Source: Candidatus Bathyarchaeia archaeon
GTDB taxonomy: Archaea; Thermoproteota; Bathyarchaeia; Bathyarchaeales; Bathycorpusculaceae
Assembly (NCBI GenBank): GCA_050010755.1
Contig: JBEKKK010000001.1
Coordinates: forward strand, 256,001-320,000
Direction of reading: 5' to 3'
DNA length: 64,000 bases
Below the pieces are notes generated by a model, which had not been told where the DNA came from, made no database searches, and saw only the letters and a list, made by a program, of their open reading frames with translations. The position numbers and the translations under genes were made by a program. Positions within the stretch are counted from its first letter, which is position 1. Each line of letters starts with the position of its first letter. Positions 12,087-38,357 of this stretch are shown piece after piece.

Positions 12087-13061
12087 TTACTGGAGTTGTT
12101 TTTTCAAGGCGTCTTTCAGCGCCGGCAGAACCTGGTACAGATCGCCTACCACTCCGTAGTCCGCGATTTCGAATATCGGTGCCTCGGGGTCTTTGTTGAT
12201 GGCCACAATTATCTTGGCATCGCGTATTCCAGCCACGTGCTGGATGACTCCTGAAACTCCAGACGCTATGTACAGTTTGGGTTTGACCTTGTGCCCTGAG
12301 AGGCCAATCCACTCTGAGAACCACTTTCGGTCTTCCACGAGCGGTCTGGAGCAGCCCACTTGGCCGCCGATAACGTCTGCGACCTGCTTCAGCAATGCGA
12401 CATCATCTTTCTTTTCTAAACCCCTTCCGCAGCTGACAATCACTTCAGCTTCTTCAACCCTTTCACTAGAGGTTTCAAGAGGTTTTCTCTCGACAACCTC
12501 AACCCTCGACGGTTCGACCTTGACATCCAGCCGGGCAACTTCTCCCTTGCGCTCCTGTGGAACACGCTTTTCAAATGCCCTGGCCGGCACGGTCACTATC
12601 TGCGGCTTCGACCTAAAAGCCACCCTTGCCAAGGCGTTTCCACCATAGGTTATTCTCTCGCCGATCAGCCTCCCGCTCCCATCTACCTCAACCGCAATGC
12701 AGTCGGGGACACATCCCGCGTCAAGACGCGTCGCGAGTTTGGCTGCGAGAGGCTTCCCGTTCCTCGTAGATCCAATCATCATGATTTCTGGGCGATCCTT
12801 TGCAGCGATGTCGTGGAGGACCCTTAGGTAGGCTTCGTCCTGAAAAATCGTTAATGCGGGGTTATCGACCGCGTAGACCTTGTCCGCCCCGTATCTTACC
12901 AGCTCGTTCGCTTTTTCCTGCGCGTTTTTTCCAAACTGTACAGCCGCAAGCCTGATGTGCAAATTGTCTGCTAGCTCCCTTGCTTTTCCGAGCAGTTCTA
13001 AAGTGAGGTCGTTAGCCTCTGAGAAAACGCAGATTCCGCCCTGCTCGTTCATACCGCTCAC
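12087..13061 (-). CDS. etfA: Electron transfer flavoprotein alpha subunit
   Basis: VIVSCGRG, GCSRP, IGLSG.KVKPKLYIASGVSG.IQH.AG, AINKDPEAPIF. Confidence 0.95.
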   Translation of the reverse strand: MSGMNEQGGICVFSEANDLTLELLGKARELADNLHIRLAAVQFGKNAQEKANELVRYGADKVYAVDNPALTIFQDEAYLRVLHDIAAKDRPEIMMIGSTRNGKPLAAKLATRLDAGCVPDCIAVEVDGSGRLIGERITYGGNALARVAFRSKPQIVTVPARAFEKRVPQERKGEVARLDVKVEPSRVEVVERKPLETSSERVEEAEVIVSCGRGLEKKDDVALLKQVADVIGGQVGCSRPLVEDRKWFSEWIGLSGHKVKPKLYIASGVSGVIQHVAGIRDAKIIVAINKDPEAPIFEIADYGVVGDLYQVLPALKDALKKQLQ

Positions 13062-13846
13062 TTCCCGATGACTCCTTCTTGAATTAACGCTTTAGCCAGT
13101 TTTTCAGCTATTTCCTGCACTGTGTCGCCCTTGATGATTATTTTTTTTCTCTCCATTTTAGGTGCTAAAGCCTCCAAGACTTCCACCTTAGAAACGATTT
13201 TCTCCTTTTGTGTGTCAATGTCTGCAAGCGTCCACTTGACTATTTCTTTCTTAGAGGCTTTCATTATCATCATAAGGGATGGGATTCTCGGCTGATTTAT
13301 CTCTCTCGTCACTGTTACCACGGCAGGAATCTTCGTCTTCACCACCTCGCTTGAGTCTTCAAGTGCTCTTTCTGCAACTATCGTGTCACCGTCCACAGTG
13401 AGTTTCCTGACCGAGCTTACCTGGGGCAAACCCAGAAGTTCTGAGAGCCTAGAGCCTACCAGTCCAGAAAAACTGTCCAGAGAAGATTCACCGCCCAGAA
13501 TCAGGTCAAATTCTCCGATTTTCCTCACCATTTGAGCAAGAATGTAAGCAGTGCCCAGAGTGTCTACCGCCTGAACCGCAGGATCATTCACAAAGTATGC
13601 CTTGTCGGCTCCCATCGCCAGCGCTTCCCGCAGAATCGCCTTGGCATCTTCTGAGTCGATGGTCAAAGTGAATATTTCGATTCCGCCAAGTTTCTCCTTG
13701 ATTCTTAGGGCCTCTTCCAGGGCGTTCTTGTCGAAATCGCTGATTTTTCTAGGCGCTCCAGCGGTTATCAACTGTCTCGTCGCAGGATCGATCTTCAACT
13801 GTGAGACATCAACCGCCTGTTTTAGACAGACGATTATGCGTTTCAT
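13058..13846 (-). CDS. etfB: Electron transfer flavoprotein beta subunit
   Basis: IIVCLKQAVD, DKNALEEALRIKE, ALAMGAD, DTLGTA, NQPRIPSL. Confidence 0.95.
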   Translation of the reverse strand: MKRIIVCLKQAVDVSQLKIDPATRQLITAGAPRKISDFDKNALEEALRIKEKLGGIEIFTLTIDSEDAKAILREALAMGADKAYFVNDPAVQAVDTLGTAYILAQMVRKIGEFDLILGGESSLDSFSGLVGSRLSELLGLPQVSSVRKLTVDGDTIVAERALEDSSEVVKTKIPAVVTVTREINQPRIPSLMMIMKASKKEIVKWTLADIDTQKEKIVSKVEVLEALAPKMERKKIIIKGDTVQEIAEKLAKALIQEGVIGK

Positions 13847-15399: not shown

Positions 15400-16509
15400 C
15401 TAAATGATCAGCCGCTCTGTTGACATGTTGCTGAGCATTTTGCTGTTCCTTCGGGTGACAGTTACGTTGTCCTCAATTCTGACCCCAAACTTCCCGAAGA
15501 AGTATATTCCAGGCTCAATCGTGAACGCCATGCCCGGTGCCAATTCCATTCTGTTGCCTTGAACGATGTACGGTTCCTCGTGCACGTCTAACCCCAGCCC
15601 ATGACCAGTCCGATGAGTGAAGTACTCGCTATATCCTGCCTTTTCTATAACGTTCCTTGCTGCAGAGTCAACTTCTTCAGCGGTGATACCTGATTTCACG
15701 CTTTTTACAGCTTCGTCGTGGGCGTTGGAGACGATATCATAAATGTTTTTTTCCTTTTCAGTAGATCCTCCGACGAAAACGGTTCGTGTGAGGTCGCCAC
15801 AGTATCCTTCGCACACGGCCCCCACATCCATTAGCACGATATCTTTTTCGCCAACTTTTCGGTTTGATGTTTCGCCGTGGGGAAGAGCAGAATTCGCCCC
15901 GGAAAGGACGATGCAGAAGGGAACGCTTTCGCCGCCGCTCTCTTTAATGGTGCGCTCTATTTGACAGGAAATTGCCAGTTCGGTGACGCCTGGTTTTATG
16001 AAATCTATTCCCGCCTTTATCCCGTCTCCCACAAAACCTGCAGCTTTCTCTATCAATTTAAGTTCGTTTTCCGACTTTATCCGTCTGAGCTGACTGAAAA
16101 AGGGTGAAGCGTCAATGGCCTTTGTTTTTAATGACTTAGCAGTCAGCATATTGCAGAATTTAAATGGCAGGGTGCCCTCAACTCCGAAAGTAGCCTTCTC
16201 CAGCTTAAGCTCTTTTATCACCTTGTTGAGCAAAGACGCAGGAGACTCTGAATCGGAATAGCTTCTTATTTCGTTAAAAGCGGATTTCTCCTCCGCCTTC
16301 GTCTTCTCCAGCCTCGGAACTATAACTACAGGAGTGCCAGTCGCGACTGGGATAACTATTCCAGCGAACCTTTCCATGGACAAGGTTGAAAAGCCAGCTA
16401 AATATCGCATGTTCTTTTCGGAGACGACCAAGAAAGCATTTATTCCTGCCTTCTTGCCAAGAGTTTTTAACCCCTGTATTCTGGTTTCAAATGCCGACAT
16501 GCTTTTCAT
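15400..16509 (-). CDS. Xaa-Pro peptidase / prolidase (M24B)
   Basis: Creatinase-like N-domain; metal ligands in MDVG, GDLTRT, HRTGHGLGLDVHE, TIEPG, RIED. Confidence 0.93.
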   Translation of the reverse strand: MKSMSAFETRIQGLKTLGKKAGINAFLVVSEKNMRYLAGFSTLSMERFAGIVIPVATGTPVVIVPRLEKTKAEEKSAFNEIRSYSDSESPASLLNKVIKELKLEKATFGVEGTLPFKFCNMLTAKSLKTKAIDASPFFSQLRRIKSENELKLIEKAAGFVGDGIKAGIDFIKPGVTELAISCQIERTIKESGGESVPFCIVLSGANSALPHGETSNRKVGEKDIVLMDVGAVCEGYCGDLTRTVFVGGSTEKEKNIYDIVSNAHDEAVKSVKSGITAEEVDSAARNVIEKAGYSEYFTHRTGHGLGLDVHEEPYIVQGNRMELAPGMAFTIEPGIYFFGKFGVRIEDNVTVTRRNSKMLSNMSTERLII

Positions 16510-16601
16510 CTTCGTGATGCTTGAGATTATCCTTGGCCTGGATATATTAACTCGCTGCAAAAGAAGGGGGAACGTCAACCATAAATAAGTCGGAACCCGA
16601 G

Positions 16602-17222
16602 GTGAGTTTTGGAGACCGCAGGTTGAAGACGATTAGAAACGAGAACTTGTGGATACGGCTGGGCAGCATGTGGACGGTTGGCTTCGCGATTCTTTTCTTG
16701 ACCTGGGCCTTGAGCTTTAGATCTCTCCCAGAAGGTGTCATACGGGGAAGTTCGGGCGCTTATTATGTGCCGGTGAAGGCACAAGACACCACTATGACTT
16801 TCGTACGATTTTTTTTGTGGAACATTTTCGTGGGCTGCATCCCAGTGGCGATTGGCAGCTTGGTCCGGGTGAAAGGCATTCCACTGGGCTATCTTTTGAC
16901 ATTTTATCACTGGGGCATTTACGGAGTTCTCCTCGGGACCAACTCCTTTGTGATTCCAGGAGCAGGCAAATTTATCCCATCCCTCACAACGCTGTTCTAT
17001 GGAAGCGGAATCTATGAGATTACAGCCTACACTCTTATTTCCTCAGCCACCTTCGCTCTGTATAACCGAATTGGAAATCCCAGTGGCAATTTAGATTCAG
17101 CCAGAAAGCAGAAGACGTTCGCTCTGAGGCTTTCAAAAACTGAGTTGACCACCATTGCGTTTGCTATTCTGATCCTGGCCGTAGCTAACTACTATGAGGC
17201 ATGGTCCATCTTTCACATCTGA
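16602..17222 (+). CDS. Membrane protein, possibly SpoIIM-like
   Basis: About 5 hydrophobic segments; FF.WN, GIYE and ANYYE motifs resemble SpoIIM-type proteins. Confidence 0.55.
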   Translation: MSFGDRRLKTIRNENLWIRLGSMWTVGFAILFLTWALSFRSLPEGVIRGSSGAYYVPVKAQDTTMTFVRFFLWNIFVGCIPVAIGSLVRVKGIPLGYLLTFYHWGIYGVLLGTNSFVIPGAGKFIPSLTTLFYGSGIYEITAYTLISSATFALYNRIGNPSGNLDSARKQKTFALRLSKTELTTIAFAILILAVANYYEAWSIFHI

Positions 17223-17465: not shown

Positions 17466-17915
17466 GTGTCGAAAACTGAGAAACGCGTGGCTATAATAAT
17501 TTGTGATCGTTACCACACATGCGCAGGCGGCAAGTGCTTGAGAGCCTTGAAGAACAGGGAGGGAGCCTTCAGCTTATACAAGGACCAAGACGTTGAGCTA
17601 GTAGGTTATACCACTTGCGGAGGGTGCCCTGGCGGAAACATCGAGTACTGCGTCGAAGAAATGAAGAAAAACGGAGCTGACGTCGTTCATTTCGCGACAG
17701 GAATGGTTGTAGGCTATCCACCATGTGCCTACATCGACGACCTTCGAAAGTTTGTCAAGCAAAAGTACGAAATAGAGGTAGTTGTGGGCACGCATCCGAT
17801 TCCACAGAAGTATTACTTGACCCATCAGGCTTTAGGAACTTGGAACTCGCCCAGCTGGAAAGAAAAAATCAAGTACGTAGTCACAGACGAGCAAACACGA
17901 TTAAAATACAATTGA
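17466..17915 (+). CDS. CGGC-domain protein
   Basis: IIIC...CAGGKC, TCGGCPG, VHFATG, PPC, VVVGTH. Confidence 0.9.
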   Translation: MSKTEKRVAIIICDRYHTCAGGKCLRALKNREGAFSLYKDQDVELVGYTTCGGCPGGNIEYCVEEMKKNGADVVHFATGMVVGYPPCAYIDDLRKFVKQKYEIEVVVGTHPIPQKYYLTHQALGTWNSPSWKEKIKYVVTDEQTRLKYN

Positions 17916-18007: not shown

Positions 18008-19057
18008 GTGAAAAATTTGTCTTGGTACATGGAACTGGGAAAAGCCGCAGACACTTTGGTGAACTATGTCCTAAGAGTGAAAAAGAACGAGGACGTCCTG
18101 ATATATGGAGACGACATCGTTGACTTCGAAGTGATGAAGGCCACTGCCGCCGCCGTGAAAACGGCTGGAGCAACACCGACCATAGTTGTTCATGAAACGC
18201 GAGAGATATCATTCACTGAACCCCCGAAGCCGCTCGCCGCTGCAATGATGGATTCAGATGTCACAGTGGAATTCTCGGCAAGAGCAATTCTCTACACCAC
18301 AGGTCAAACAAACGCTTTGAAGAGAAACCGGGCTTACATCTGCCTAACTTCTCTTGACCGCGAGGCAATGGTCAGAACTTTGGGCTGGGTGAACTACCCG
18401 AAAATGGTTGAGCTGGGAGACAAACTTGCCGAAATGACGACGAAGGCCAAAGAGATCAAAGTAACGAGCCCTTCTGGGACAAACTTCTCAGCCCAGATAG
18501 GCGGACGAAAGTTTGAGAACTTCGGTGGCACAGCTGACAAAAGAAAAGTCATAATGTTAGGCGGCCAGACCGGTGGCGCTCCGATAGAGGAAACAGAAAA
18601 TGGTATCCTTGCTTTTGACGGAAACGTTTGGCCTCCAGATGAAATCAAGGCGAACATAAAAACTCCCATAAAATGCAAGGTTGAAAAAGGAGTCATAACA
18701 GAAATCTCTGGAGGTATCGAGGCTGACGTACTACGAAGGTACATGGCAAGCCTCAACGACAAGAACCTGTATCGCATAGCCCACGTCTGCTACGGATACC
18801 ATCCAAAGGCGAGAGTCACAGGCGACATATCTGAAGTCGAAAGAGTCTGGGGCTGCTTCCAAGTCGGATGGGGGTCTCAAGGACCACTCCTCAGACCAGA
18901 CCTAAAGGGCCAATTTGGATGGAGAGCTGCATCACATGACGACGGCATTATACTGAAAGCGTCAATATACCTCGACGGCGAAGCCATCCAAAAAGATGGG
19001 AAATTCGTCCATCCAGACTTGATCCCGCTAGTAAAGGCAATGGGCGTAGTGCAATAG
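18008..19057 (+). CDS. M29-fold metalloenzyme, NicX-like variant (paralog 1)
   Basis: AmpT-like fold (VTSPSGT, FDG..WPP, ISGG.EA) with GGQ, AHVCYG, EVERVWG and SHDDGI site motifs. Confidence 0.8.
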   Translation: MKNLSWYMELGKAADTLVNYVLRVKKNEDVLIYGDDIVDFEVMKATAAAVKTAGATPTIVVHETREISFTEPPKPLAAAMMDSDVTVEFSARAILYTTGQTNALKRNRAYICLTSLDREAMVRTLGWVNYPKMVELGDKLAEMTTKAKEIKVTSPSGTNFSAQIGGRKFENFGGTADKRKVIMLGGQTGGAPIEETENGILAFDGNVWPPDEIKANIKTPIKCKVEKGVITEISGGIEADVLRRYMASLNDKNLYRIAHVCYGYHPKARVTGDISEVERVWGCFQVGWGSQGPLLRPDLKGQFGWRAASHDDGIILKASIYLDGEAIQKDGKFVHPDLIPLVKAMGVVQ

Positions 19058-19264: not shown

Positions 19265-20305
19265 CTATGCGAGCAGTTTTCCGTCTTTCATTACGGTTTT
19301 TCCGTCGAGCATCCACGTCGGTTTTGGAACGACGAAGTCTTGATGCAGGTCGGTCGACACTTTCCCGCCCATGTGTGAGTTGTCGCCTATAGCCAAGTGC
19401 ACTGTTCCTCTTATCTTCTCGCATTCGAGAAGGTTATCTGGCCGCTTTGCGTTTGGGTTTGTCCCTATCCCAAGTTCGGCTAGGTTTCTTCGCGAAAGAT
19501 ACGGTTCCTCTTTTTTGCTGAAGTCAAGCAATTTCCGGAATTCGTCGCCAACCTTTCCTCCGCCAATTATTCCAGTGACTTTTCCATCCTTAAAGACCAA
19601 GGTCATTTTCTCTTTGAGGTCTGCGCACCAGTTTGGCTCCACCACGAGGTTGCCGCCAGCCGTGCCTTCTACTGGTGTGGTGTATGCTTCTCCTGCCGGC
19701 AGGTTGCCCCAAGAGCCTTTCTCGTTGAATATTCCCGTGTCGACCTTACCGTTTCTGTCTTTCACGCTGAAAACGATGTTTGTGCCTCCTGGCGAGGTTA
19801 CCTTAGCTTCGCTGGCTTTTGTAATCCAATCTGCAATTCTTTTAGTTTCTTTTTCTATGAGTTGATAGTCAGCAGCCATGGGTCCGCCCTTGGAAAACAT
19901 TTCTGCCACGAAGGTTGGCATGCTCGCGACTCTTCCTCCAGCTTTGCACGCGTTGACGCGTGCATCGGTGTGAGTGAGCGAATAGGTTGTTATTGCAATA
20001 GTCACGTCTGCGTTCTTCATTTTCTCTTCGACTTCCTTTCCCGGATGAGTTCCATGTTGACCAACCGAAGGATAAGTGTAGAACTCGACAGGGTTTTTGG
20101 GGAATTTTTCTGCCGCGATTTCGCTGACCATCTTTGCCAAGATAGACCGTTCGGCTGCTTCTGCCAATTTTTCGCTAGTCTTGGTTTTCCATTCTGCGGC
20201 TGTTGGAACATCGTTGACAACCAGCACTTTCTCGCCATCTTTCAGTGCCATGTTCACTTTCAACATGTTCACGACGCCGTTCACAATTTTGTCCTTCTCG
20301 ATCAT
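19265..20305 (-). CDS. Aminopeptidase M29 (AmpT/AmpS-like, canonical dimetal site)
   Basis: NLPAGE, NLAELGIGTN, ECEKIRGTVHLAIG, LHQD; start moved to ATG 20305. Confidence 0.9.
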   Translation of the reverse strand: MIEKDKIVNGVVNMLKVNMALKDGEKVLVVNDVPTAAEWKTKTSEKLAEAAERSILAKMVSEIAAEKFPKNPVEFYTYPSVGQHGTHPGKEVEEKMKNADVTIAITTYSLTHTDARVNACKAGGRVASMPTFVAEMFSKGGPMAADYQLIEKETKRIADWITKASEAKVTSPGGTNIVFSVKDRNGKVDTGIFNEKGSWGNLPAGEAYTTPVEGTAGGNLVVEPNWCADLKEKMTLVFKDGKVTGIIGGGKVGDEFRKLLDFSKKEEPYLSRRNLAELGIGTNPNAKRPDNLLECEKIRGTVHLAIGDNSHMGGKVSTDLHQDFVVPKPTWMLDGKTVMKDGKLLA

Positions 20306-20363
20306 AAACATCACAACAGTGTCGATTTTTCGAGCAAATCGTAAACTAGCTGTGCTCAAAAGA

Positions 20364-20414: not shown

Positions 20415-20912
20415 ATGGAAGACCGAATAATTGAAGTTATCAAGAAGCGGAGAAGTGTGCGCCGATACAAGAAAGAATCCTTTCCGATGGAAAAACTTGT
20501 CCATATTATCGAGGCGGCCCGTTGGGCACCTTCAGCCGGCAATTCGCAACCTTGGATGTTTTTGCTGATAAACGACGAAAACATGGTGAAGGCACTGAAG
20601 TCAGTGTCCCCAGGATGGTTGAGAGATGCTCCTGCAGCGATAGTAATGTGTCTCAACAGAGAAAGTGAAACGAATTGGAGTTACATGGATATCGGTGCCG
20701 CGATGCAGAACATGCTGTTGTATGCCCATTCGATGGGGTACGGATGCTGCCCGATTGGCAGTTTCGTCGTTGACGCCATTAAGGGACTCTTAGAATTGCC
20801 AACAAAGCTCGAACCGGTTTTGTTGCTGACGGTGGGCTACCCTGATGAGAAGCCGCCAGCCACAACTCGTTTGTCAACGGGCGAACTTATTTTCAAGAAG
20901 GTTGGAAACTAA
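20415..20912 (+). CDS. Nitroreductase-family flavoprotein, cyclodipeptide oxidase subunit A (AlbA)-like, copy 1
   Basis: RRSVRRY, APSAGNSQPW, VSPGW, DIGAAMQN, GCCPIGSF, LEPVLLLTVGYP; translationally coupled (TAATG) to an AlbB-like gene. Confidence 0.8.
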   Translation: MEDRIIEVIKKRRSVRRYKKESFPMEKLVHIIEAARWAPSAGNSQPWMFLLINDENMVKALKSVSPGWLRDAPAAIVMCLNRESETNWSYMDIGAAMQNMLLYAHSMGYGCCPIGSFVVDAIKGLLELPTKLEPVLLLTVGYPDEKPPATTRLSTGELIFKKVGN

Positions 20913-21211
20913 TGACGAAAAAGGCGGATGACTACCTTTTTGAGATAACCTGCTTCGTGACATCAAGTGCCGAGAGAGCTCTCGGACCCGAACGACAATA
21001 CGGAGCGTGCCGCCTCCTCCAAACGCTCTACATGCTCTCTTTCCTTCCAGACTACGTCGACGTGAAGGGAAACGAGTTGCTGGCGAAAGTCAGAGCATAT
21101 GTGGACGCAGATCCTCAGAACTTCTGGCGTGAACCTCAACTGAAACAGTTTTTCAGTGAGCTCAGTCGACAACTCGCGACAGAGATAAAGAGTCGACAAA
21201 ACTTGAAGTGA
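20912..21211 (+). CDS. Small helical protein, AlbB/DUF6092-like, copy 1
   Basis: 99 aa; YLFEITCFVTSSAE...P..YGACRLL motif shared with 38358..38684. Confidence 0.72.
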   Translation: MTKKADDYLFEITCFVTSSAERALGPERQYGACRLLQTLYMLSFLPDYVDVKGNELLAKVRAYVDADPQNFWREPQLKQFFSELSRQLATEIKSRQNLK

Positions 21212-21266
21212 TAGTACAAGTCAAGTTTTAAATACATCATTCTCTCAGAGACGCGTGGGGATAGTT

Positions 21267-21980
21267 TTGCTCAAAATACTATTCATAAACCCGATGGGCA
21301 CCGACATTTACGATAGACACATGTTGGACACGATAAACGCAGTCAAGAGAAGTGACGTGAAAGCTAAGGTAGTCCATCTGCACAAAGGTCCAGTCCACTT
21401 GGAGTATCACTACTATGAACACTTGAATCTTGACGAAACTCTAAATTGGGTGAGGCGAGCGGAAAAAGATGGTTATGACGCAGTGGTCATAGGCTGTTTC
21501 TACGACCCCGGAGTAAGGGAAGCCAGGGAACTAGTTTCCATTCCAGTTATCGTTCCTGCAGAAGCAACATTACACGTCGCCGCGACGCTCGGACACAAGT
21601 TCTCGATAATCGTGGGTAGACGAAAGTGGATTCCGAAGATGGAAAGCAACCTGTACGTTTACGGACTAGAGAGGAAGCTTGCCTCATTCCGAGCTTTAGA
21701 CTTCACCGTCCCTAAGATGTTTTCTGACCCTGAGAAGCTTGAAAAGGCTATTTTGACCGAGGCCAAGAAGGCACTGAAAGAGGACGGCGCAGAAGTCATA
21801 GTCCTTGGATGCACGATGGAGTCAGGATTTGCGAAAGATTTGACAGAAAAGCTGAAAGTGCCTGTTCTGGACGCTGTTGTGACCTCGTGGAAATATGCTG
21901 AAATGATGGCTGACTTATACCGCAAAGTGGGCTTAACGCACTCCAAACTTTACGGATACGAAGCTCCTCCCGATGCGTAG
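21267..21980 (+). CDS. Asp/Glu/hydantoin racemase family protein (copy 1)
   Basis: ILFINP, IGCFYDPG and VLGCT catalytic cysteine pair; TTG start chosen. Confidence 0.9.
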   Translation: MLKILFINPMGTDIYDRHMLDTINAVKRSDVKAKVVHLHKGPVHLEYHYYEHLNLDETLNWVRRAEKDGYDAVVIGCFYDPGVREARELVSIPVIVPAEATLHVAATLGHKFSIIVGRRKWIPKMESNLYVYGLERKLASFRALDFTVPKMFSDPEKLEKAILTEAKKALKEDGAEVIVLGCTMESGFAKDLTEKLKVPVLDAVVTSWKYAEMMADLYRKVGLTHSKLYGYEAPPDA

Positions 21981-22144: not shown

Positions 22145-22855
22145 TTAAGGCGTTCTCTTTTTCTTATAAGGATCCATGAACGCTTTTTTGCTGTTCGAGA
22201 GGTTTAATTTCACCAAGTCCTCAGCAATCTTCAGCGCAGCTAAGCCGGGATCGACAACGGGCACTTTGAGTTTTTTCTGCATTATTTCTGCTATGTTGAG
22301 TAGACTTCCGCATCCCATGACTAAGACTTCAGCTCCGTCTTCTTCTATGGCTTTTTTGCCTGCGGCAAGCAGTTCCTTGCAGAGTTCATCAAAGTCTTTC
22401 TTGATGTCAAGAACTTTCGTTTCGATTATCCTGGCTGATGCCAGCTTGTGCTTCAATCCGTAAACCGTTATCTTGTCCTCGAACAGTGATGCAGCACCGC
22501 AACCGCCAACACCTATGACTGAGAATTTCCTCCCCAAAATGGACGCTAGATGAATTGCTGGTTCGTTTATCCCAACTACGGGTATGTTTAACGCTTCTTT
22601 CATTGCTTCAAGCGCCGGATCGCCGAAACAATAGTCTATGACAGCGTCGTAACCTTCCTTCTCAGCTTTTTCGGCTTCAAGTAACGCTGGCAGAGCGGCC
22701 CAAGCTTCGTCGTAGAGTTGCTCGATGGAGTCAGGACCTCTCTTCAAGTTTACCACGGTCAGCTTAGTGTCAGGATCTTTGTATTTTTCGAACGCTTCTC
22801 TTATCATGTCAGTCCAAAGATCTGTCGTGACTGGTACGATGACTTTTATTCGCAT
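22145..22855 (-). CDS. Asp/Glu/hydantoin racemase family protein (copy 2)
   Basis: GPDSIE, YCFGDPA and VMGCG catalytic cysteine pair, PVVDP. Confidence 0.9.
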   Translation of the reverse strand: MRIKVIVPVTTDLWTDMIREAFEKYKDPDTKLTVVNLKRGPDSIEQLYDEAWAALPALLEAEKAEKEGYDAVIDYCFGDPALEAMKEALNIPVVGINEPAIHLASILGRKFSVIGVGGCGAASLFEDKITVYGLKHKLASARIIETKVLDIKKDFDELCKELLAAGKKAIEEDGAEVLVMGCGSLLNIAEIMQKKLKVPVVDPGLAALKIAEDLVKLNLSNSKKAFMDPYKKKRTP

Positions 22856-23047
22856 GTTGAAACCCTGAATTAGTGTAGATATATGAGGCGATTTAAGTCT
22901 TTCTAGCAGAGACCAAACAAGGGACAATTAACGAGCTAAAACCGATGCTAATTGATGCGTTTGATTCGGGCAATGAGCTCCAACAAGGTTACGAGAGGAA
23001 AATTCTTTTAAACTATGCAACATTATGGTATTCACAGGCGGTATCCC

Positions 23048-24094
23048 TTGACGGAGTATTACGAATATGAGTTAGGCAAGGCTGCCAAGATTCTGATTAA
23101 TGAACTTGTAAAAGTCAAGCCAGGAGAAATAATTGCAATCACAGCTGACACAGGATCGGACAGAAGAGTGGTGAACGCAACGGCTGCTGCCGCCTTCGCC
23201 GCTGGCGGACTGCCCTTAGTTATGACGATTGCATCGCCGTTAGGAGTTGGCAAGGATTCTGACGCATTGACCCCTGTAAAAGCACTAGGAGCGGCTCTGA
23301 AAGAAGCTGACGTTTGGATAGAATACAACCAGCAATGGCTGCAGTACTCAACAACATATGAGATTGCTACCAAGGGAAATAGCAGACTGAGATACCTGTG
23401 CTATGTTACAATGGATGCAGATATGATGACGAGAGTGATAGGCCGAATTGATTACGTTGCACAGAAGGCCTTTCAGATAAAGTTACACGACATGACAGAA
23501 AAGTCTAGGCATATGCGAATTACAACCCCAGCTGGCACACACGTAGAGTTTGACAACCCGCGAAAGGTGTGCATGACAAATTCGTACGGTTATGCGGACG
23601 TCCCTGGTCAGCATTTGTTGGCAGGGCAGATAGGCTGGAGGCCGGTTGTTGAATCTATCAACGGGACAATAGTCTTTGACGGATCTATAGTTCCCCCCAT
23701 CGGCTTGGTTAAAACCCCTGTGAAGCTTTCCGTTAAGGGGGGAAAGGTCGTGAAGTTCGAGGGCGGCGATGAAGCCTTGAAGTATGAGTCTTGGTTGAAA
23801 AGCTTCAAAGATCCGCTTATGTTGACCTTGGCTCACGCATGCTATGGAGTAAACCCGGGGGCGAACCTAACCGGAAACATTCTTGAGGACGAAAGAGTTT
23901 GGGCCTGTACAGAATGGGGATTAGGATACGTAGGTCCATTTTTTGCCCCACCGGACGGCATACCAGCGTCAACCCACACGGACGGAATATGCCTCAACTC
24001 TTCAGTGTGGCTCGATGAAGAACAAATTCTCGACAAAGGAAAATTCATACATCCTGAGTTAGCGAAGTTAGCCAAAAGACTCGGAAAGACGTAG
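23048..24094 (+). CDS. M29-fold metalloenzyme, NicX-like variant (paralog 2)
   Basis: YYEYELGKAA, AGQIGW, FDGS..PP, AHACYG.NPGA, LEDERVW, THTDGI; TTG start. Confidence 0.82.
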   Translation: MTEYYEYELGKAAKILINELVKVKPGEIIAITADTGSDRRVVNATAAAAFAAGGLPLVMTIASPLGVGKDSDALTPVKALGAALKEADVWIEYNQQWLQYSTTYEIATKGNSRLRYLCYVTMDADMMTRVIGRIDYVAQKAFQIKLHDMTEKSRHMRITTPAGTHVEFDNPRKVCMTNSYGYADVPGQHLLAGQIGWRPVVESINGTIVFDGSIVPPIGLVKTPVKLSVKGGKVVKFEGGDEALKYESWLKSFKDPLMLTLAHACYGVNPGANLTGNILEDERVWACTEWGLGYVGPFFAPPDGIPASTHTDGICLNSSVWLDEEQILDKGKFIHPELAKLAKRLGKT

Positions 24095-24141: not shown

Positions 24142-25113
24142 CTATTTAGCCGCTAGGTGACAGGCTACCTGATGGTCTGGTTCCACGGTGACGAACGATG
24201 GTTGTTTGGTCTTGCATATTCCGGTTGCGAAGGGGCATCTGGTGTGGAAGCGGCAACCCGGTGGCGGGTTTATGGCGCTCGGAACTTCGCCTCTTGATGT
24301 TACCTCTTTGGGTTTAAGCTTCTCCTCGTCGTCCGTCAACACGGGTATTGATGAGAGTAGCATCTGCGTGTATGGATGCACAGGATTTCGGAAGAAAATC
24401 GGTGTGGGAGCAAACTCCACGATTTGTGCCAGATACATTATCGCCACCCTTGAAGACACGTTTCTCATGAGGCTCAGATCATGGGTTATGAACAAGTATG
24501 ACAAGTTGAGTTCTTGTTGCAGCTTCATGAGCACTTTCATTATTTTTGCCTGGATAGAAACGTCTAGAGCTGATGTGGGCTCATCTAGTACTATGAAAGA
24601 GGGGTTTGTTGCGATGGCCCTTGCGATAGCGACAGCCTGTCTTTCACCTCCACCCAAGTCTTTTGGTCGTCTCTCTTTGAAATCCTGAGAGGGCAACTCG
24701 ACGGCATCAAGCAGTTCAGATACTCTTTTGTCTCGTTCTTCACGAGTTTTAGCCAGCCCCTGAATTCTCAACGGTTGCCCTATTACGTCTTTGACCGTTT
24801 TTGTCGGATTCAGAGAAGAAGCAGGATCTTGGAAGACGATTGCAAGATTCTTCTTCAAACCTTTTGGACGTTTCTTGGCGTGCATGGACAAGTCGTTGCC
24901 TTTGAAGAGTATTCTTCCCGAGGTGGGCGTGTAGATGCCCATAACTACATAGCCGGTTGTGCTCTTGCCAGAACCTGATTCGCCTACTAAGCCGAAGGTT
25001 TCACCTGATTTGACTGTAAAGTTTATGTCGTCTATTGCTCTGACTACTCCGAAACTGGTTTTGAAATGTTTTGTAAGATTTTCCACTACTAGTAAATCCT
25101 CATTCTTTTCCAT
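24142..25113 (-). CDS. Peptide ABC transporter ATP-binding subunit (OppF/DppF-like)
   Basis: GESGSGKST, LGGGERQ signature, VLDEPTSALD, HPYT..L, PPGCRFHTRC...C...VAC. Confidence 0.95.
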   Translation of the reverse strand: MEKNEDLLVVENLTKHFKTSFGVVRAIDDINFTVKSGETFGLVGESGSGKSTTGYVVMGIYTPTSGRILFKGNDLSMHAKKRPKGLKKNLAIVFQDPASSLNPTKTVKDVIGQPLRIQGLAKTREERDKRVSELLDAVELPSQDFKERRPKDLGGGERQAVAIARAIATNPSFIVLDEPTSALDVSIQAKIMKVLMKLQQELNLSYLFITHDLSLMRNVSSRVAIMYLAQIVEFAPTPIFFRNPVHPYTQMLLSSIPVLTDDEEKLKPKEVTSRGEVPSAINPPPGCRFHTRCPFATGICKTKQPSFVTVEPDHQVACHLAAK

Positions 25114-25119
25114 TAGTGC

Positions 25120-26103
25120 TCATCTCTTGTTATACAACCAACAAGCAACTTTGTGGTTTTCCCCATTCACTTCCAGAAGACTGGGCCTTTCCTTTCTGCA
25201 TATCTCCATTGCATGCTGACAACGTGGATTGAACCTGCAACCGGGTGGAGGGTTAATGTAGTCTGGAATTCTTCCTGGAATACCTTCAGAAAATCCTTCC
25301 CCACTCAACTTGGGAACAGACTTAAGCAGTCCTTGCGTATAAGGATGCAGAGGGTTCGAGAACAATTTCTGTGTTTCTGAAGACTCAATCATGTTTCCCG
25401 CGTACATGACATACACTGTGTCTACTGTGTTTTTTACGGTTCCCAGTGCATGAGATATCAGGATGATTGACAGGTTTCTCTTGTCTACTAGGTCCTTCAT
25501 AAGACGCAAAACTTGGTCTTGAATTGTGACGTCAAGACTGGTGGTGGGCTCGTCAGCAATCAGAAGATCCTTCGCTGTGGCCAGCGACATTGCTATGCAA
25601 ACTCTTTGACGCATGCCACCGCTTAACTGAAAGGGGTAGCTGTCAAGCACTCTTTCAGGATCTGGAAGCGAAACTTCCTTGAGAGCTGCTATGGATTTTC
25701 CCCGAAGGATTTTTTTCGTGGCTTTTTCGTGGTCAAAGTCGCCTGAGTATTTTATTACATCTCCAAGCAGTTCTTCGATCTTGAATACCGGATTGAGGGC
25801 GGCAGTTGGATCCTGAAATATCATGGTAAGGTTTTTTCTTCTTATCTGGTTCAATTGCTTCTTGCGGATTTTCAGCATGTCCTGTCCTCGAAAACTTACT
25901 TCTCCACCCTCGATTACGGCGTTTGACGCTAGGATCCCAAGTATTGCCTTCATCGTACTGGTCTTACCGCAACCAGATTCGCCGATGATTCCGACTTTCT
26001 CGCTCTCACGCAGAGTGAAGTCTACCCCGTTTAAGACATTCAGCTTGCCCAAGTACGTTTTGAAGCCTACAAAAAGGTTTCTCACTTCCAAGAAAGGCTC
26101 CAT
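25120..26103 (-). CDS. Peptide ABC transporter ATP-binding subunit (OppD/DppD-like)
   Basis: GESGCGKT, LSGGMRQR, IADEPTT.LD, HPYTQGL, PPGCRF.PRC. Confidence 0.95.
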   Translation of the reverse strand: MEPFLEVRNLFVGFKTYLGKLNVLNGVDFTLRESEKVGIIGESGCGKTSTMKAILGILASNAVIEGGEVSFRGQDMLKIRKKQLNQIRRKNLTMIFQDPTAALNPVFKIEELLGDVIKYSGDFDHEKATKKILRGKSIAALKEVSLPDPERVLDSYPFQLSGGMRQRVCIAMSLATAKDLLIADEPTTSLDVTIQDQVLRLMKDLVDKRNLSIILISHALGTVKNTVDTVYVMYAGNMIESSETQKLFSNPLHPYTQGLLKSVPKLSGEGFSEGIPGRIPDYINPPPGCRFNPRCQHAMEICRKERPSLLEVNGENHKVACWLYNKR

Positions 26104-26988
26104 TTATCTCGTCTCCTCAACGAAAATGTCTCGAATTCCATCTCCTAAGAGATTGAAGCCCAGAATCACAACGACGATTGCCATAGCCGGGAACATGCTT
26201 ATCCACCACTGGCCGGGCAGAAAAATAGAACCACCAGCGACCATTGTACCGAGATCCGGTGTTGGAGGCTGAGCACCTAATCCCACAAAGCTCAGTGCTG
26301 AGCCTAACAGTATCACCCAGCCCACATCTAACGTGATCTTTGTCAGAATTGAGCCTAGACAGTTTGGAAGGATTTCGCTGAACATTATTCGGAAGGAGTT
26401 TTCGCCCATTACTTCGGAGGCTTGAACAAAGTATTCATTTCTCACGCTTGATGTAGCGTTGTATGTTAGCCTCGTGTACCAAGGCCACCACATCAGCGAG
26501 ACTGCCATCATCGCGTTGAATGCGCTTGGAGTGAGCACGGACGCTATCGACAAAGCCAGTACGAGCGGGGGGACAGCTATGAACACGTCTGATATTCTCA
26601 TTACCGCCATATCGACCCATCCGCCTCTGTAATACCCAGCGATCAAACCCAGAACCACCCCAGGTGGAACTACGAGCAACAACACTACCCCCGCCATCAT
26701 AAGCGAGTATTGAAACCCAAAGATAGTTCTGGTAAACACGTCCCTTCCCAGCTGATCTGTTCCAAACAGGTTTTTCGAACTAGGAGGCAGGAACCTGTCC
26801 CGAAGGTTCGTTTGCAAGCCAGCCTGGCGCGGATAAGGAGTTATAAAAGGAGCTGCTAAGGCCAGAAAAATGACCACTGCAACTACAATGAGGCCCACTA
26901 CAGACAGAGGGCTTCTGGAGAATCTGAACCATTTTCTCTTAATATCGTACCTCTTGGCGATTGTCCTGATTTTTTCCATTACTTGCAC
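26104..26988 (-). CDS. Peptide ABC transporter permease (OppC/DppC-like)
   Basis: FGTDQLGRDVF.R, LSFVGLGAQPPTPDLG, FNLLGDGIRD. Confidence 0.95.
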   Translation of the reverse strand: MQVMEKIRTIAKRYDIKRKWFRFSRSPLSVVGLIVVAVVIFLALAAPFITPYPRQAGLQTNLRDRFLPPSSKNLFGTDQLGRDVFTRTIFGFQYSLMMAGVVLLLVVPPGVVLGLIAGYYRGGWVDMAVMRISDVFIAVPPLVLALSIASVLTPSAFNAMMAVSLMWWPWYTRLTYNATSSVRNEYFVQASEVMGENSFRIMFSEILPNCLGSILTKITLDVGWVILLGSALSFVGLGAQPPTPDLGTMVAGGSIFLPGQWWISMFPAMAIVVVILGFNLLGDGIRDIFVEETR

Positions 26989-28013
26989 TATTGACCTCTC
27001 TCCATGAGTCTTATTCTCGGATCAAGATATGCGACCATAACATCGACAATTATGTTTGCAAGTGCATACATAATCCCTATAATCAAAACTAGCGCGACTA
27101 TACCGTTCAGATCTTTGTTTATCATAAAATTGAGACCAAGGTTGGCAAAGCCTGGCCAGTTAAAAATATCTTCTACAAGAAAAGCGTTGGCCATCAACGC
27201 GGCTATGTCCAATCCCATAACTGTTACTGCAGGAATCATGGATGGTTTGAGCAGATATTTAAGTGTCACAGTTCTATCAGGCAAGCCTTGAGACTTTGCC
27301 ATCGATATGTAATCCTTATCTTTGTTTTCAACCATGCCGGATCTTATTATTCTTGCATCCTGACACATTGCTCCCGTACACAATGCCGCAGCTGGCAGAA
27401 CCATGTGCCACAAAGCGTTTCCGAACACGTTAAACTTGCCAGCTATGAGAGAGTCAATCGTGACGAATCCAGTCACCGTATGTGGACCTGCGATTCCTGA
27501 TGAAAGCTCTCCAGTAGTCGGAAAAATTTTGAAATAGTAAGAAAACACGAGTTGCAGGATTATGGCCAGGACGAAGGCTGGAATTGATATTCCAATATAG
27601 GAGACCAATCTGACGAGGTTGTCAGGTGCTTTATAGGAATATCTGCCCGCTATGATGCCAAGTATAAAGGCTCCGGCTATTTGAAACAGGGCTGCCAACA
27701 CTATCAGTTCGATGCTCGCAGGAAGATACTTTACGACAAGACTCGATATGTCAACTCTTGTTGTTGTTGAATAGCCCAAGTTGAGGTGAAAGACGTCGTT
27801 AAGCCACACGAAATACTGTATGTATAGGGGCTTGTCCAATCCCAGTTGCTTTCTGAGTTGCTCCACGGCCCATGCTGGTGCATTGTTTCCTGCTGCCAAT
27901 CGCGCCGGGTCACCGGGCAGCACTCTGGCCAGAACGAAAACAAGTATCGATAGCCCAAACAAAGAAAAGACTATGTAGAAAGTTCTCCTAAGTATGAATG
28001 TCGACATCCTCAT
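26988..28013 (-). CDS. Peptide ABC transporter permease (OppB/DppB-like)
   Basis: LPGDPA, GLDKPLYIQY, FNWPG, YLDPRI. Confidence 0.95.
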   Translation of the reverse strand: MRMSTFILRRTFYIVFSLFGLSILVFVLARVLPGDPARLAAGNNAPAWAVEQLRKQLGLDKPLYIQYFVWLNDVFHLNLGYSTTTRVDISSLVVKYLPASIELIVLAALFQIAGAFILGIIAGRYSYKAPDNLVRLVSYIGISIPAFVLAIILQLVFSYYFKIFPTTGELSSGIAGPHTVTGFVTIDSLIAGKFNVFGNALWHMVLPAAALCTGAMCQDARIIRSGMVENKDKDYISMAKSQGLPDRTVTLKYLLKPSMIPAVTVMGLDIAALMANAFLVEDIFNWPGFANLGLNFMINKDLNGIVALVLIIGIMYALANIIVDVMVAYLDPRIRLMERGQ

Positions 28014-28274: not shown

Positions 28275-30005
28275 TTGAAACGTTTTCTAAATAGTTCTGC
28301 AATTTCAAAGATGTACGCTGCAGTCATAGCCATTATCATAATCGTAGCCGCAATTATTGGTGCTGTCTACTACGTGACCCTTCCGGGCCCGAGCCCATCT
28401 CCTTCCGCATCTCCTACAGCATCGCCTTCAGCATCTCCTTCCCCGTCGTCTTCTGCCAACATCACTGCTACGAGACTTGTTAGAAGAGGAGAATCATTTC
28501 CCTGCACCATTGATCCCGCTGTTGGATCAGACTTCTGTAGCCAAGACGGACAAACCAATCTTTACGATCCTCTTGTCTGGCCACAGCCTGGAGGAGGCGT
28601 AATTCCGTGGATTGCCACAAACTGGACAATCAGCAGTGACAGTTTGAACTACACATTCACGATCAGGCAGGGTGTGAAGTTCCATGACGGCGGAAGTTTG
28701 ACGGCGAATGATGTTGCCTTTACGATGCAAAGACTGCTAACGATAGGTCAAGGGTATTCGTGGATTTACTCGAATTATATAAACCCCACCACAGGCATCA
28801 TCGTGCTCGATGACTACACGATAATGTTCCACATCAACGCCCCAGAAGGAGCTTTTCTTGATTCGCTCGTCAGGTTGTACATAGTTGAAAAGTCATTGGT
28901 GATGGCCAACCTAGCCTCTTCTGGACCGTATGGCAATTTCGCAGACTACGGCACAACATGGTTAGCAACACACGATGCAGGCTCTGGTCCTTACTACCTC
29001 ACGGCAATAAGCGTGGACTCCTATGTCTACATGAAGCAGTTCTCTGGTTACTGGAACCCGACAAGCTTTGACCCACTTGCTCCAACCGAGGTAGATTTAG
29101 TGGCCACAGCCGCCAGCTCGGCAACGGAAAAGACTTTGATGCTGAACAAGCAGTTGGAAGTTTCCGACGAGTGGCAAGGTGACTCGTTCCTTGACCCACT
29201 AAACGCAACGAGCTACATCACTATAGAGTCTCACTCAGATGCGGGGGAATACTACTACATGATGAACACTCAGAAAGCACCAACAGACGATGTGTATGTT
29301 AGGCAAGCCCTCGCGTACGCCTTCGACTATCCGACGACGTCGACCCAGATATACTCAAGGTTCGAATCGTCAATATCATGCATACCCGCGGTCCTACCTG
29401 GAGCCATAAACTGCACGCCATATTACTTCAATCTCACCATGGCTGCCGCCCTGCTCAAGCAATCTAAGTATTACCCAAACATACCAGCGATTACATTCCA
29501 AGTGATGAATGAGGTCCCAGAGAGAATGAGTGACGCTTTGCACTTCGCCGAAACGTGTGGAGAGATCAATTTGACCGTAACAGTGACCAGCGTTCCATGG
29601 GGCACCATGGCTTCGGAGATGGCTAACAATGCCACAAGTCCAAACATTGTGCCAATAGTCGTAGACCCTCTATTCCTTGACGCAGGTTCAATGCTCGCCG
29701 AGAGATTTTCGATAGCATCTGAAGGCTCGTTCGACAATGGTGTTTGGCTACACAATGCTACGCTCGATGCGGAGATAAATGCCGCTGAAAGCACTATGGA
29801 CACGACTTCTAGAATGTCACAGTATGCACACATTCAACAAGAAATAATGAGCATATGCCCTGACATCTATGTCTATGACTTCAAAGTTGTAGAGACAGTC
29901 CAAAACTACGTTTACATACCACAAATGCACAACGCATCAACAGTCATCGGCATCCAAGGTTACAACTGCGTTTTCAGAACTTGGCAAGTCAGCCCATCAT
30001 CCTGA
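28275..30005 (+). CDS. Peptide ABC transporter substrate-binding protein (family 5), N-terminal membrane anchor
   Basis: Hydrophobic N-terminal helix, P/S/A/T linker, IDPA, LYDPLV, FTIRQGVKFHDG..LTANDVAFT, GSGPY, VRQALAYAFD. Confidence 0.95.
   Translation: MKRFLNSSAISKMYAAVIAIIIIVAAIIGAVYYVTLPGPSPSPSASPTASPSASPSPSSSANITATRLVRRGESFPCTIDPAVGSDFCSQDGQTNLYDPLVWPQPGGGVIPWIATNWTISSDSLNYTFTIRQGVKFHDGGSLTANDVAFTMQRLLTIGQGYSWIYSNYINPTTGIIVLDDYTIMFHINAPEGAFLDSLVRLYIVEKSLVMANLASSGPYGNFADYGTTWLATHDAGSGPYYLTAISVDSYVYMKQFSGYWNPTSFDPLAPTEVDLVATAASSATEKTLMLNKQLEVSDEWQGDSFLDPLNATSYITIESHSDAGEYYYMMNTQKAPTDDVYVRQALAYAFDYPTTSTQIYSRFESSISCIPAVLPGAINCTPYYFNLTMAAALLKQSKYYPNIPAITFQVMNEVPERMSDALHFAETCGEINLTVTVTSVPWGTMASEMANNATSPNIVPIVVDPLFLDAGSMLAERFSIASEGSFDNGVWLHNATLDAEINAAESTMDTTSRMSQYAHIQQEIMSICPDIYVYDFKVVETVQNYVYIPQMHNASTVIGIQGYNCVFRTWQVSPSS
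28395..28442 (+). repeat. Four imperfect 12-nt tandem repeats encoding the PSPS-ASPT-ASPS-ASPS linker
   Basis: ccatctccttcc / gcatctcctaca / gcatcgccttca / gcatctccttcc. Confidence 0.85.
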
Positions 30006-35221: not shown

Positions 35222-35483
35222 CCTGCAGCCTTCCTGCATGCATCATCATGGTCGTCGCATAATAGTTTTTGCTTTGAAACATTATTTCAACTCATGCCGA
35301 ACGTTAGAGCGGGTACTGCACTGAGCCGTTTTCTTGAAACAAGTTACAACTTGGCAAACTCGAAATTGTCGATAAAGGTTGACTTGGAAGCCGAGATTTG
35401 ATGACCAATCGCAGGCAGCCGATTCCCAATCTTTTATACCTAGGAACCCCAAATGTGGTTTAGAATCCTTGGAGTTCTCGCAC

Positions 35484-36431
35484 ATGGTCAAGTTTGGGAT
35501 ACATTTGCCCCAGATTGGTGTTGATTATCGCACGGTTAAGGACGTGGCCTTGACGTGTGAACGCGTCGGGTTTCACACTGTTTGGGCGACGGATCATCTC
35601 CTGCCGATTGAAGGCTCCGGGCAAGAATCCTATCTGGAGTGTTGGACAACCCTCTCCGCGTTGGCAGAAGCAACAAGTACTGTGAGAATAGGGACTATGG
35701 TGCTTTGCAACCTGTACAGGCACCCACCTATTCTGGCCAAGATGGCGGCAACCCTCGATGTCGTCAGCGGGGGCAGGCTTGATTTCGGTCTCGGAGCGGG
35801 ATGGTTCAAACCAGAAGCCGAAGCTTTCGGCGTGCCGTTTCCAAAAGCTCCTGTCAGGATAGAAATGCTCAATGAAGCCCTGGAAGTGCTTGAGAAGATG
35901 TGGTCAGAAGAAAAACCTGTTTTCAACGGCAAGTATTACAGGATAAACGAGTCATCATGCAACCCGAAGCCCCTCCAGAAACCACATCCCCCAGTGTGGA
36001 TAGGCACTCAGACGGGAGGCAAACTGATGTATAAAACGGTTGCCAAGCATGCCGACGGATGGGCGGTCGGAGCTTGGTATTTGCCGTCAGTCGATGAATA
36101 CAAGCAGATGACGGACCAAGTTAAGCTCTTCTGCTCAGAGGCTGGAAGAGATTTCGAAAGACTGGAGAAAGGGCTAGGAGTTGTGTGTGTTCTGGCTGAG
36201 AACAAGACAATTCTTGAAGAAAAAACCAGGAGGTACAGACCCTCGAGAAGCCCACTTGACGAGTACGGGGCAACGAAAATGCAGATATATGGAACCCCAG
36301 AAGCGTGCGTGGACATTCTGAAAACATACGCCAAAGCAGGCGTGGATCATTTCATGATGGTATTTCCAGACGGAACGGATCTCAAAACGATTCGCCTCTT
36401 CGGCGAGCAGGTTATACCATTCGTTAAGTGA
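35484..36431 (+). CDS. LLM-class (luciferase-like) oxidoreductase, probably F420-dependent
   Basis: WATDHL, LE.WTTLSALA, YRHP..LAKMAATLDVVSGGR...GLGAGW, PKPLQKPHPP. Confidence 0.9.
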   Translation: MVKFGIHLPQIGVDYRTVKDVALTCERVGFHTVWATDHLLPIEGSGQESYLECWTTLSALAEATSTVRIGTMVLCNLYRHPPILAKMAATLDVVSGGRLDFGLGAGWFKPEAEAFGVPFPKAPVRIEMLNEALEVLEKMWSEEKPVFNGKYYRINESSCNPKPLQKPHPPVWIGTQTGGKLMYKTVAKHADGWAVGAWYLPSVDEYKQMTDQVKLFCSEAGRDFERLEKGLGVVCVLAENKTILEEKTRRYRPSRSPLDEYGATKMQIYGTPEACVDILKTYAKAGVDHFMMVFPDGTDLKTIRLFGEQVIPFVK

Positions 36432-36650
36432 ACCCAGAACTTATTCGCGCGCGACCTTGCACGACACAAACTTGGAAAGGCAAATCGGAATTTCGCGAAA
36501 AGTTAAGAAACCTGTTTCGAGATATGATTGTTCTAGATTGATGCGCTTTGAGCACTCGAAGCGGCAAGAATGAGTGGCACAAGTCGAGAAAAAGAAAAAA
36601 GATGGGAAGGCTCTGTAGCTTCGGAGCTTCCGTTTCGAGCCTTGATTGTT

Positions 36651-37697: not shown

Positions 37698-37802
37698 TTT
37701 TGTCACTTCCTGAAAAAAGCTATCTTGGCCGTTCAGCTTATAAAACTTCTCAAAAACCCTTTTAGGCTCGCTGGCGAATCATCTAACAGCTGTCTCTAAA
37801 AA

Positions 37803-38354: not shown

Positions 38355-38357
38355 ATT

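Follow-up and report, generated by a model that had tools for sequence, protein, structure and literature searches.

We analyzed a pair of overlapping genes, here designated A1 and B1, in a 64,000-nucleotide stretch of DNA (the window; G000:C1:256001-320000) from a Bathyarchaeia metagenome-assembled genome (MAG; 2.19 Mb, eight contigs, 93.5% complete). The two proteins are related to the flavin subunit (CDOA) and the small helical subunit (CDOB) of cyclodipeptide oxidases (CDOs), but in our reading they do not serve a cyclodipeptide synthase (CDPS) pathway as its tailoring oxidase. We think it somewhat probable that A1 and B1 form an O2-independent, CDO-like flavin mononucleotide (FMN) flavoenzyme that works within a conserved gene module on imported, peptide-derived and probably cyclic amides. 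The pair adds one member to a class that is published but functionally unsolved, and this kind of system is already in print; what is new here is a clade of such pairs tightly linked to a divergent NicX/M29-like gene, a two-cysteine racemase and an importer of the Opp/Dpp type. The host is an oxygen-avoiding peat archaeon, i.e., an anaerobe; close homologs carry the name "Candidatus Bathyarchaeia archaeon" in the records they come from.

A coupled gene pair related to cyclodipeptide oxidases

A1 (20415..20912, forward strand) encodes a 165-residue, CDOA-like FMN subunit of the nitroreductase fold, which matched PF00881 with an E value of 9.9e-36 and a score of 123.9 bits (cut-off 23.5). Its top match among solved structures was AlbA (8uc3_A; E 1.3e-21, 80.4 bits, 150 of 165 residues aligned), followed by the A subunit of NdasCDO (9exv_A). 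Ordinary nitroreductases scored close behind AlbA (3e10_A, 75.1 bits), so that A1 alone does not settle the assignment, and no NCBIfam model attained its cut-off for A1. The second gene, B1 (20912..21211, forward strand), encodes a 99-residue protein that is predicted to be a divergent CDOB/DUF6092 (AlbB-like) helical subunit. The two genes meet in a TAATG at 20910-20914, where the A1 stop codon (TAA, 20910-20912) and the B1 start codon (ATG, 20912-20914) overlap by one base. A preliminary description of this DNA had recorded the same coupling and the same two products and had called them an AlbA/AlbB-like pair, a reading that agrees with the top solved match of A1 and with the profile comparison of B1 given next.

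Membership of B1 in DUF6092 (PF19585) failed at Pfam's own cut-off and held in profile-profile comparison. Against the Pfam hidden Markov model, B1 scored 24.5 bits (E 3.3e-5, model positions 3-85 of 86; 24.0 bits when the whole genome was scanned) versus a gathering score of 28.7, and no NCBIfam model matched it. When a profile of 25 B1-clade sequences was aligned by hhalign with one of 20 canonical DUF6092 proteins, however, the two matched over 100 columns with a probability of 99.5% and an E value of 4.2e-23. The B1-clade profile, run against 1.84 billion representative proteins, found 29 at E ≤ 1e-3; PF19585 was matched by 23 of the 24 finds that were scanned (20 above and 3 below the cut-off), the remaining one being a 700-residue protein that matches eleven unrelated families. 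A precomputed match to PF19585.5 was present in 60 of 84 B1-related protein clusters, and most of the B1 clade lies at or below the Pfam threshold used for retrieval in the published survey of CDO-like operons (Andreas & Giessen, Nat Commun 2024, PMC11055893; hereafter the survey, whose text is cited from its accessible parts).

The connection of B1 to AlbB is transitive only and runs through B2, the small subunit of a second pair in the window (A2, 37803..38354; B2, 38358..38684; both on the forward strand). B2 scored 80.6 bits on PF19585 and matched solved AlbB-type chains (9exv_C, E 4.2e-5; 8uc3_D, E 8e-3), with 32% identity to NdasCDO-B, while B1 matched B2 by BLASTP at 3e-10; pair 1 is the more divergent of the two, as had been stated. 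This chain, the hhalign match and the search of representative proteins together identify B1, at the level of sequence, as a divergent but genuine DUF6092/CDOB protein.

Structure prediction contributed little to this assignment. The AlphaFold2 monomer model of B1 (mean predicted local distance difference test score [pLDDT] 87.8) found no chain in the PDB with Foldseek at E ≤ 0.001, with AlbB not among the matches listed, and in VIA-align it met generic helical bundles (best Z score 7.9 among 48,161 representatives and 7.6 among Foldseek's 350 chains). In a control, the model of B2 (pLDDT 90.9) did find 9exv_C, but no higher than rank 22 (E 0.62, template modeling score 0.48/0.52); the negative for B1 is therefore uninformative, because the fold search misses even a true member. 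A complex prediction with two copies each of A1, B1 and FMN reached scores of 0.03 and 0.02, where the mark is 0.32 (controls not run), and has no bearing on binding.

The pairing itself is strongly conserved. In all 40 loci with upstream sequence an A gene adjoins B, and the distance between the alignment ends of A and B is 0-21 nt in 39 of them and 112 nt in one locus that is cut by a contig end. Given this adjacency and the 84 clusters of B1-related proteins (61-99% identity, almost all from metagenomes), A1/B1 is not a chance pair of open reading frames. One might still suppose an ordinary NAD(P)H nitroreductase followed by an unrelated small helical reading frame, an idea to which the nearly equal scores of A1 against ordinary nitroreductases and AlbA and the sub-threshold Pfam score of B1 lend some color. 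We consider it hardly credible in view of the 40 conserved pairs with their tight coupling, the hhalign probability of 99.5% to DUF6092 and the clear purifying selection on the B clade, in which 23 columns are invariant among 25 sequences that are 66-85% identical to B1.

The clade is patchily distributed, as few matches were found in the class of the host and none in the genomes of its family that were searched. Among 200 other genomes of the class searched with B1, five gave a match at E ≤ 1e-3, all at 33% identity or less, and none came from the 27 genomes of the same family. Close B1 orthologs were reached only via metagenome and MAG contigs, with 3 loci in species-representative genomes and 47 in metagenomes. 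A search of sequencing runs gave 18 DNA holders, from peat, wetland, soil and sediment, and listed no RNA holder.

We then compared the residues around the flavin. A1 contains the motifs SVSPGWL and GCCPIGSF, where the AlbA sequence shows SPG, LCVAMAVEN and GGCPVGSF; B1 carries TSSAERALGPERQYGACRL, and AlbB shows LLSSGRGLLEEPADYGIYR. The motifs quoted in the preliminary description, including those it gave for AlbA and AlbB, are thus present in the proteins concerned. The survey names AlbA R24, R28, N55 and S139, together with AlbB Y37 and R41, as conserved. In the PDB alignments the four AlbA residues correspond to R12, R16, N43 and S116 of A1, and when the alignments of AlbB to B2 and of B2 to B1 are chained, Y37 and R41 of AlbB correspond to Y30 and R34 of B1. 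A1 thus keeps all four, and B1 keeps the tyrosine and the arginine over the flavin.

Other positions differ. The cysteine that binds FMN covalently (C115 in AlbA, C121 in NdasCDO), which according to the survey is confined to CDPS-linked CDOAs, aligns to Asp92 of A1 in both PDB alignments; this aspartate is found in at least 90% of the clade and also in pair 2. Ser54 of AlbA (Ser58 of NdasCDO) is replaced by Gly42. The E2 loop, including Glu117 of NdasCDO, is deleted in A1; roles of this and other residues in known CDOs, among them the capping of the active site by the E2 loop, are described in the survey and in PMC11760959. Just before the D..N helix A1 has a gap of 11 residues relative to AlbA and of 9 relative to A2, matching the shorter loop noted earlier. 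In B1, the Glu33-Pro34 of AlbB, which is nearly invariant in known CDOBs (PMC11055893, PMC11760959), becomes P26-E27 in the chained alignments, so that the EP motif is lacking in register, again as had been described. G25, P26, Y30, G31 and R34 are invariant in the B1 clade, and 90% of it or more also has E27, A32 and C33. Because it is fixed across the clade, the GPE..YG..R pattern reads, on alignment evidence, as a selected variant and not as decay. Of the flavin and interface residues conserved in CDO-like systems (AlbA R28, S54, N55 and S139; AlbB E33, P34, Y37 and R41), S54, E33 and P34 are thus changed and the others kept. Several residues for which a part in CDO catalysis has been proposed are absent, and the chemistry of A1/B1 may therefore differ from known CDO chemistry.

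The clade already has one member in a published table. Supplementary Data 1 of the survey lists eight Bathyarchaeota operons, and its row 200, a Nitrososphaeria archaeon pair, shows the clade motifs VGPERAYGACRL and NFWREPQLK; the A sequence in that row matches clade member P0138, which is 62% identical to A1. The locus studied here and the Bathyarchaeia clade are not described individually in the survey.

A conserved neighborhood of metalloprotein, racemase and importer genes

The genes around A1/B1 recur from locus to locus. We tallied 42 loci in which B was at least 60% identical to B1, 18 of which extended over at least 14 kb (the long loci). A NicX/M29-like gene lies immediately upstream and in divergent orientation in 34 of 35 clade loci; in the exception (L050) it is ~770 bp upstream on the same strand. 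Downstream of B, the next gene in 37 loci was a racemase (20), an M24 peptidase gene (7), a NicX-like gene (3), a convergent A/B pair of the pair-2 type (2) or a major facilitator superfamily transporter (2), with none within 400 bp in the remaining 3. All 18 long loci contain both the NicX-like gene and the racemase, 16 contain the importer and 13 the M24 gene. In the survey's accessible text this near-obligate NicX/M29-like neighbor is unmentioned, and the terms "M29" and "aminopeptidase" are absent from its searchable supplements (two files were unreadable).

In the window, the upstream position is held by X359a (19265..20344, reverse strand), a putative NicX/M29-like metalloprotein separated from A1 by 70 bp. 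It matched NicX (7cn3) at 1.8e-7 and PF02073 weakly, and it has Glu, His and Asp at the positions of NicX His265, His318 and Asp320. Its atlas neighbors carry PF26233 (NicX) and PF02073, and they include clusters with PF26231 (CgnE_B) on 17% of members. A paralog on its other side, X349 (18008..19057, forward strand; NicX E 2.5e-11), recurs close to the pair in most of the long loci. The closest to NicX is X351 (36651..37706, reverse strand; E 1.5e-15), next to pair 2, which keeps His265, His318 and Asp320, three of the four Fe ligands of NicX (PMC7910607). The fourth ligand, Ser302, lies in an insertion that has no counterpart in X351, and Arg293 is not kept. A dioxygenase role for the NicX-like proteins is unlikely, because no oxidases were found in the host. 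No NCBIfam or Pfam-A model (in the copy used) reached its threshold for the NicX-like window proteins.

In all, the genome has six NicX/M29-like paralogs, four of them in the window within 20 kb and two outside it (G000:C1:624130-625137 and 346026-346904). The fourth in the window, X359b (23015..24094, forward strand), is 38% identical to X349 and belongs to the same family as X351. At L012:12158-13167, and likewise in L023, tblastn matched its ortholog in two pieces that abut but lie in different frames (12158-12640 and 12640-13167), which points to a frameshift or a fault of assembly in that MAG.

The near-obligate adjacency in 34 of 35 loci could also mean that A1/B1 modifies linear peptides, with the NicX/M29-like protein as a binding or presenting partner. 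A precedent is crocagin biosynthesis, in which, according to the accessible part of PMC10070186, the M29-derived CgnB and CgnE bind the peptide and recruit it to a dioxygenase, and CgnB is proposed to catalyze an elimination via Zn ions; the CgnE_B family among the atlas neighbors of X359a points the same way. The surroundings, however, resemble uptake and catabolism and not a cluster for peptides that are made on the ribosome and modified after translation (RiPPs), and the Glu/His/Asp set of X359a is compatible with a catalytic metal site. We regard this explanation as quite improbable.

Downstream, Rac1 (21255..21980, forward strand) begins 43 bp after B1 and encodes a hydantoin/allantoin-racemase-like, two-cysteine racemase or epimerase (PF01177, E 4.9e-40). 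Among solved structures it comes nearest to 3qvj (4.3e-25), labeled a "putative hydantoin racemase", and to allantoin racemases such as 5lfd, and the fourth-best match is the fungal peptide epimerase OpaE (9qbx, 1.5e-15), a PF01177 enzyme that, in the accessible account (PMC12661438), epimerizes residues in nonribosomal peptide derivatives. At the two positions where 3qvj has Cys and 3qvk has Ser, the aligned residue of Rac1 is cysteine both times, so that the two catalytic cysteines are kept. A second racemase-like gene, Rac2 (22145..22927, reverse strand), also matches PF01177 (1.1e-44). Beyond X359b lies an ATP-binding cassette (ABC) importer of the Opp/Dpp type with two ATPases (each PF00005 + PF08352) and two permeases (each PF00528) (24142..28013, reverse strand), followed by the family-5 solute-binding protein of this importer (28275..30005, forward strand; PF00496, E 6.6e-54). 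Binding-protein-dependent ABC systems are importers.

The relatives of Rac1 bear on the substrate. The authors of the survey favor hydantoin- or allantoin-like substrates for CDO-like systems without a CDPS, around which they report an enrichment of hydantoin- and allantoin-related genes, and in this proposal a hydantoin substituted at position 5 or a ureide resembling allantoin would be dehydrogenated or reduced by the pair, while Rac1 would serve as the hydantoin/allantoin racemase. NicX, which among solved structures stands closest to the upstream gene, moreover cleaves an N-heterocycle. Yet Hydantoinase_A was not found in the genome scan (93.5% complete), no hydantoinase, carbamoylase or allantoinase family occurs among the 29 window proteins scanned against Pfam, and the neighbors are peptide-specific: the importer with its oligo_HPY (PF08352) domains, the family-5 binding protein and an M24 prolidase-like enzyme. 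Such N-heterocycle metabolism therefore strikes us as improbable for this locus.

The M24 gene (15400..16578, reverse strand; PF00557 + PF01321) encodes the Xaa-Pro dipeptidase-like (prolidase-like) protein of the module. Between it and X349 lie genes for a 206-residue membrane-like protein without a family match (16602..17222) and a CGGC-domain protein (17466..17915, forward strand), both syntenic with the module in many loci. The electron transfer flavoprotein (ETF) alpha and beta genes are located at 12087..13846, 6.5 kb upstream of A1. They were considered as a source of the redox partner and set aside, as their synteny is found in only five loci (the window, L013, L014, L017 and L026), of which L013 and L014 are approximately the same organism, and is too weak.

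A predicted oxygen-independent reaction on peptide-derived amides

The absence of a synthase partner had been remarked on in the preliminary description. CDPS (PF16715) was indeed found neither in the genome scan nor among the 29 scanned window proteins, but this is not remarkable in itself, as 88% of the survey's 274 CDO-like operons lack a CDPS. Nor did the genome scan find COX1/haem-copper oxidase or cytochrome bd. For all of these searches, including that for Hydantoinase_A, controls on named genomes behaved as expected; with the genome 93.5% complete, the absences are not proven. The window also encodes a glycyl-radical enzyme.

According to the survey, all characterized CDOs are biosynthetic, and a role for A1/B1 as a tailoring enzyme of a secondary metabolite, a dehydro-peptide from a route other than CDPS, would follow that pattern. 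It is very unlikely given that no CDPS was found, that no nonribosomal peptide synthetase, polyketide synthase or RiPP-type family occurs among the 29 scanned neighbors, that the transporter is of the importer type and that the host is an anaerobe with a small genome (2.19 Mb). The missing CDPS, COX1 and cytochrome bd, the import-type transporter and the change from Cys115 to Asp92 were counted in favor of a function that is neither biosynthetic nor linked to O2.

A comparison with AlbAB (8uc3) and NdasCDO (9exv) shows what is shared and what is not. Common to all are the order of A followed by B, translational coupling, the size class of a four-to-five-helix B subunit and the residues R24, R28, N55 and S139 of AlbA and Y37 and R41 of AlbB. 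A1/B1 differs in having no CDPS, in the aspartate at the FMN cysteine, the glycine at Ser54/58, the deleted E2 loop and the P-E in place of E-P. The overlap of the genes is 1 base, compared to the 20-30 nt reported for known CDO genes (PMC11760959). Known CDOs, moreover, need O2, whereas the host of A1/B1 lacks the O2-respiration genes that were searched for. With the non-CDPS operons the pair shares a nitroreductase-fold A gene coupled to a PF19585-type B gene, the lack of a CDPS and the same classes of neighbors. Such operons occur in anaerobes and archaea, and the survey reports an enrichment in hydantoin racemases (PF01177), in ABC transporters for dipeptides or oligopeptides and in peptidases.

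Taking the module as the importer, the NicX/M29-like metalloprotein, the A/B pair, the two-cysteine racemase or epimerase and often a prolidase, we propose the following scheme. The ABC importer would bring in small peptide-derived amides, for which diketopiperazines or other cyclic compounds are the most plausible candidates. A1 and B1 would form a heteromer in which, by analogy with AlbAB, Tyr30 and Arg34 of B1 cap the flavin site, with the FMN probably bound non-covalently and the redox partner being something other than O2. The flavoenzyme would dehydrogenate a C-alpha/C-beta bond or, in reverse, reduce it; the racemase would equalize the stereochemistry at the same C-alpha, and the NicX/M29-like metalloprotein would hydrolyze or open the product, or else present the substrate.

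Several observations weigh against this scheme. A1 is only marginally nearer to AlbA than to ordinary nitroreductases, B1 falls under the PF19585 threshold, and searches of the PDB sequences with B1 alone and with the B1-clade profile returned no solved chain, AlbB included. The residues proposed for CDO catalysis (the serine replaced by Gly42, the Glu117 loop and the register of E33-P34) are absent, and the survey's authors prefer another substrate class. There is no biochemical datum for any non-CDPS CDO-like enzyme, and none of the papers since 2024 that were listed for cyclodipeptide oxidase deals with the function of these enzymes. Many of the 42 loci are near-duplicates (among them L011/L022, L012/L023/L027 and L028-L030, with L013 and L014 from an organism identical or almost identical to that of the window), so that the counts overstate the independent support. 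None of the neighbors described above recurs in eight loci whose B is 47-54% identical to B1, with A adjacent in seven of them, and in three other Bathyarchaeia genomes with pair-2-type genes the NicX-like gene was within ~8 kb in none and a racemase was present in one. The NicX-like linkage thus appears to be clade-specific.

One extension of the proposed scheme, which we put forward only tentatively and consider doubtful, is that the module serves the O2-independent breakdown of diketopiperazines and racemized small peptides by Bathyarchaeia in peat and sediment, with the second module of the window doing likewise for substrates containing proline or hydroxyproline. The epimerase would then funnel D and L stereoisomers, desaturation at C-alpha/C-beta would turn the very stable ring into an activated enamide or imine, and the NicX-like metalloenzyme would open it hydrolytically; the second module would act on Pro/Hyp-containing substrates beside genes of hydroxyproline catabolism. 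If true, this would give a catabolic function to the 88% "orphan" CDO-like systems and a non-oxygenase role to the NicX fold. Because Bathyarchaeia abound in peat and sediments as degraders of detrital protein, a route for diketopiperazines or racemized peptides would bear on the recycling of aged organic nitrogen.

For most CDO-like A/B systems (the same 88% in the survey), neither the substrate nor the reaction nor the electron acceptor is known, and those of anaerobic archaea cannot be oxidases in the usual sense. The compact, conserved set of partners seen here (NicX/M29-like protein, racemase and importer) narrows the function to a few reactions that can be tested at the bench. A search for DUF6092 found no literature under that name, and one for Bathyarchaeia with nitroreductase, peptide or hydantoin found nothing relevant besides the survey.

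A second pair in the same window

Pair 2 repeats the layout of a divergent NicX-like gene (X351) followed by A and B, and then by a gene of the proline-racemase/4-hydroxyproline-epimerase/3-hydroxyproline-dehydratase family (38785..39804). Given identities of 36% and 29% between the two pairs, and their different neighbors, the different substrate range that had been suggested for pair 1 is plausible as judged from these comparisons. Farther downstream are the large and small subunits of AcnX (39922..41561) and a radical-SAM activase with the glycyl-radical enzyme (41664..44949). An F420-type luciferase-like oxidoreductase also lies beside pair 2, and the gene set of the whole region (35379..44949) looks like anaerobic (hydroxy)proline catabolism.

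Two further arrangements were seen in other loci. In L040 (1594-3454) and L049 (2-1336), a pair-1-type and a pair-2-type A/B pair stand convergently, ~275 bp apart, and are followed by a Rac2-like gene. The nearest relatives of B1 outside the clade (47-54% identity; L052:6043-7880 and L057:5026-6871) lie on bacterial-looking contigs with OmpA, MnmA and Rrf2, and in both a gene for an M15_4 D-Ala-D-Ala-carboxypeptidase-like protein is located directly upstream of the A gene.

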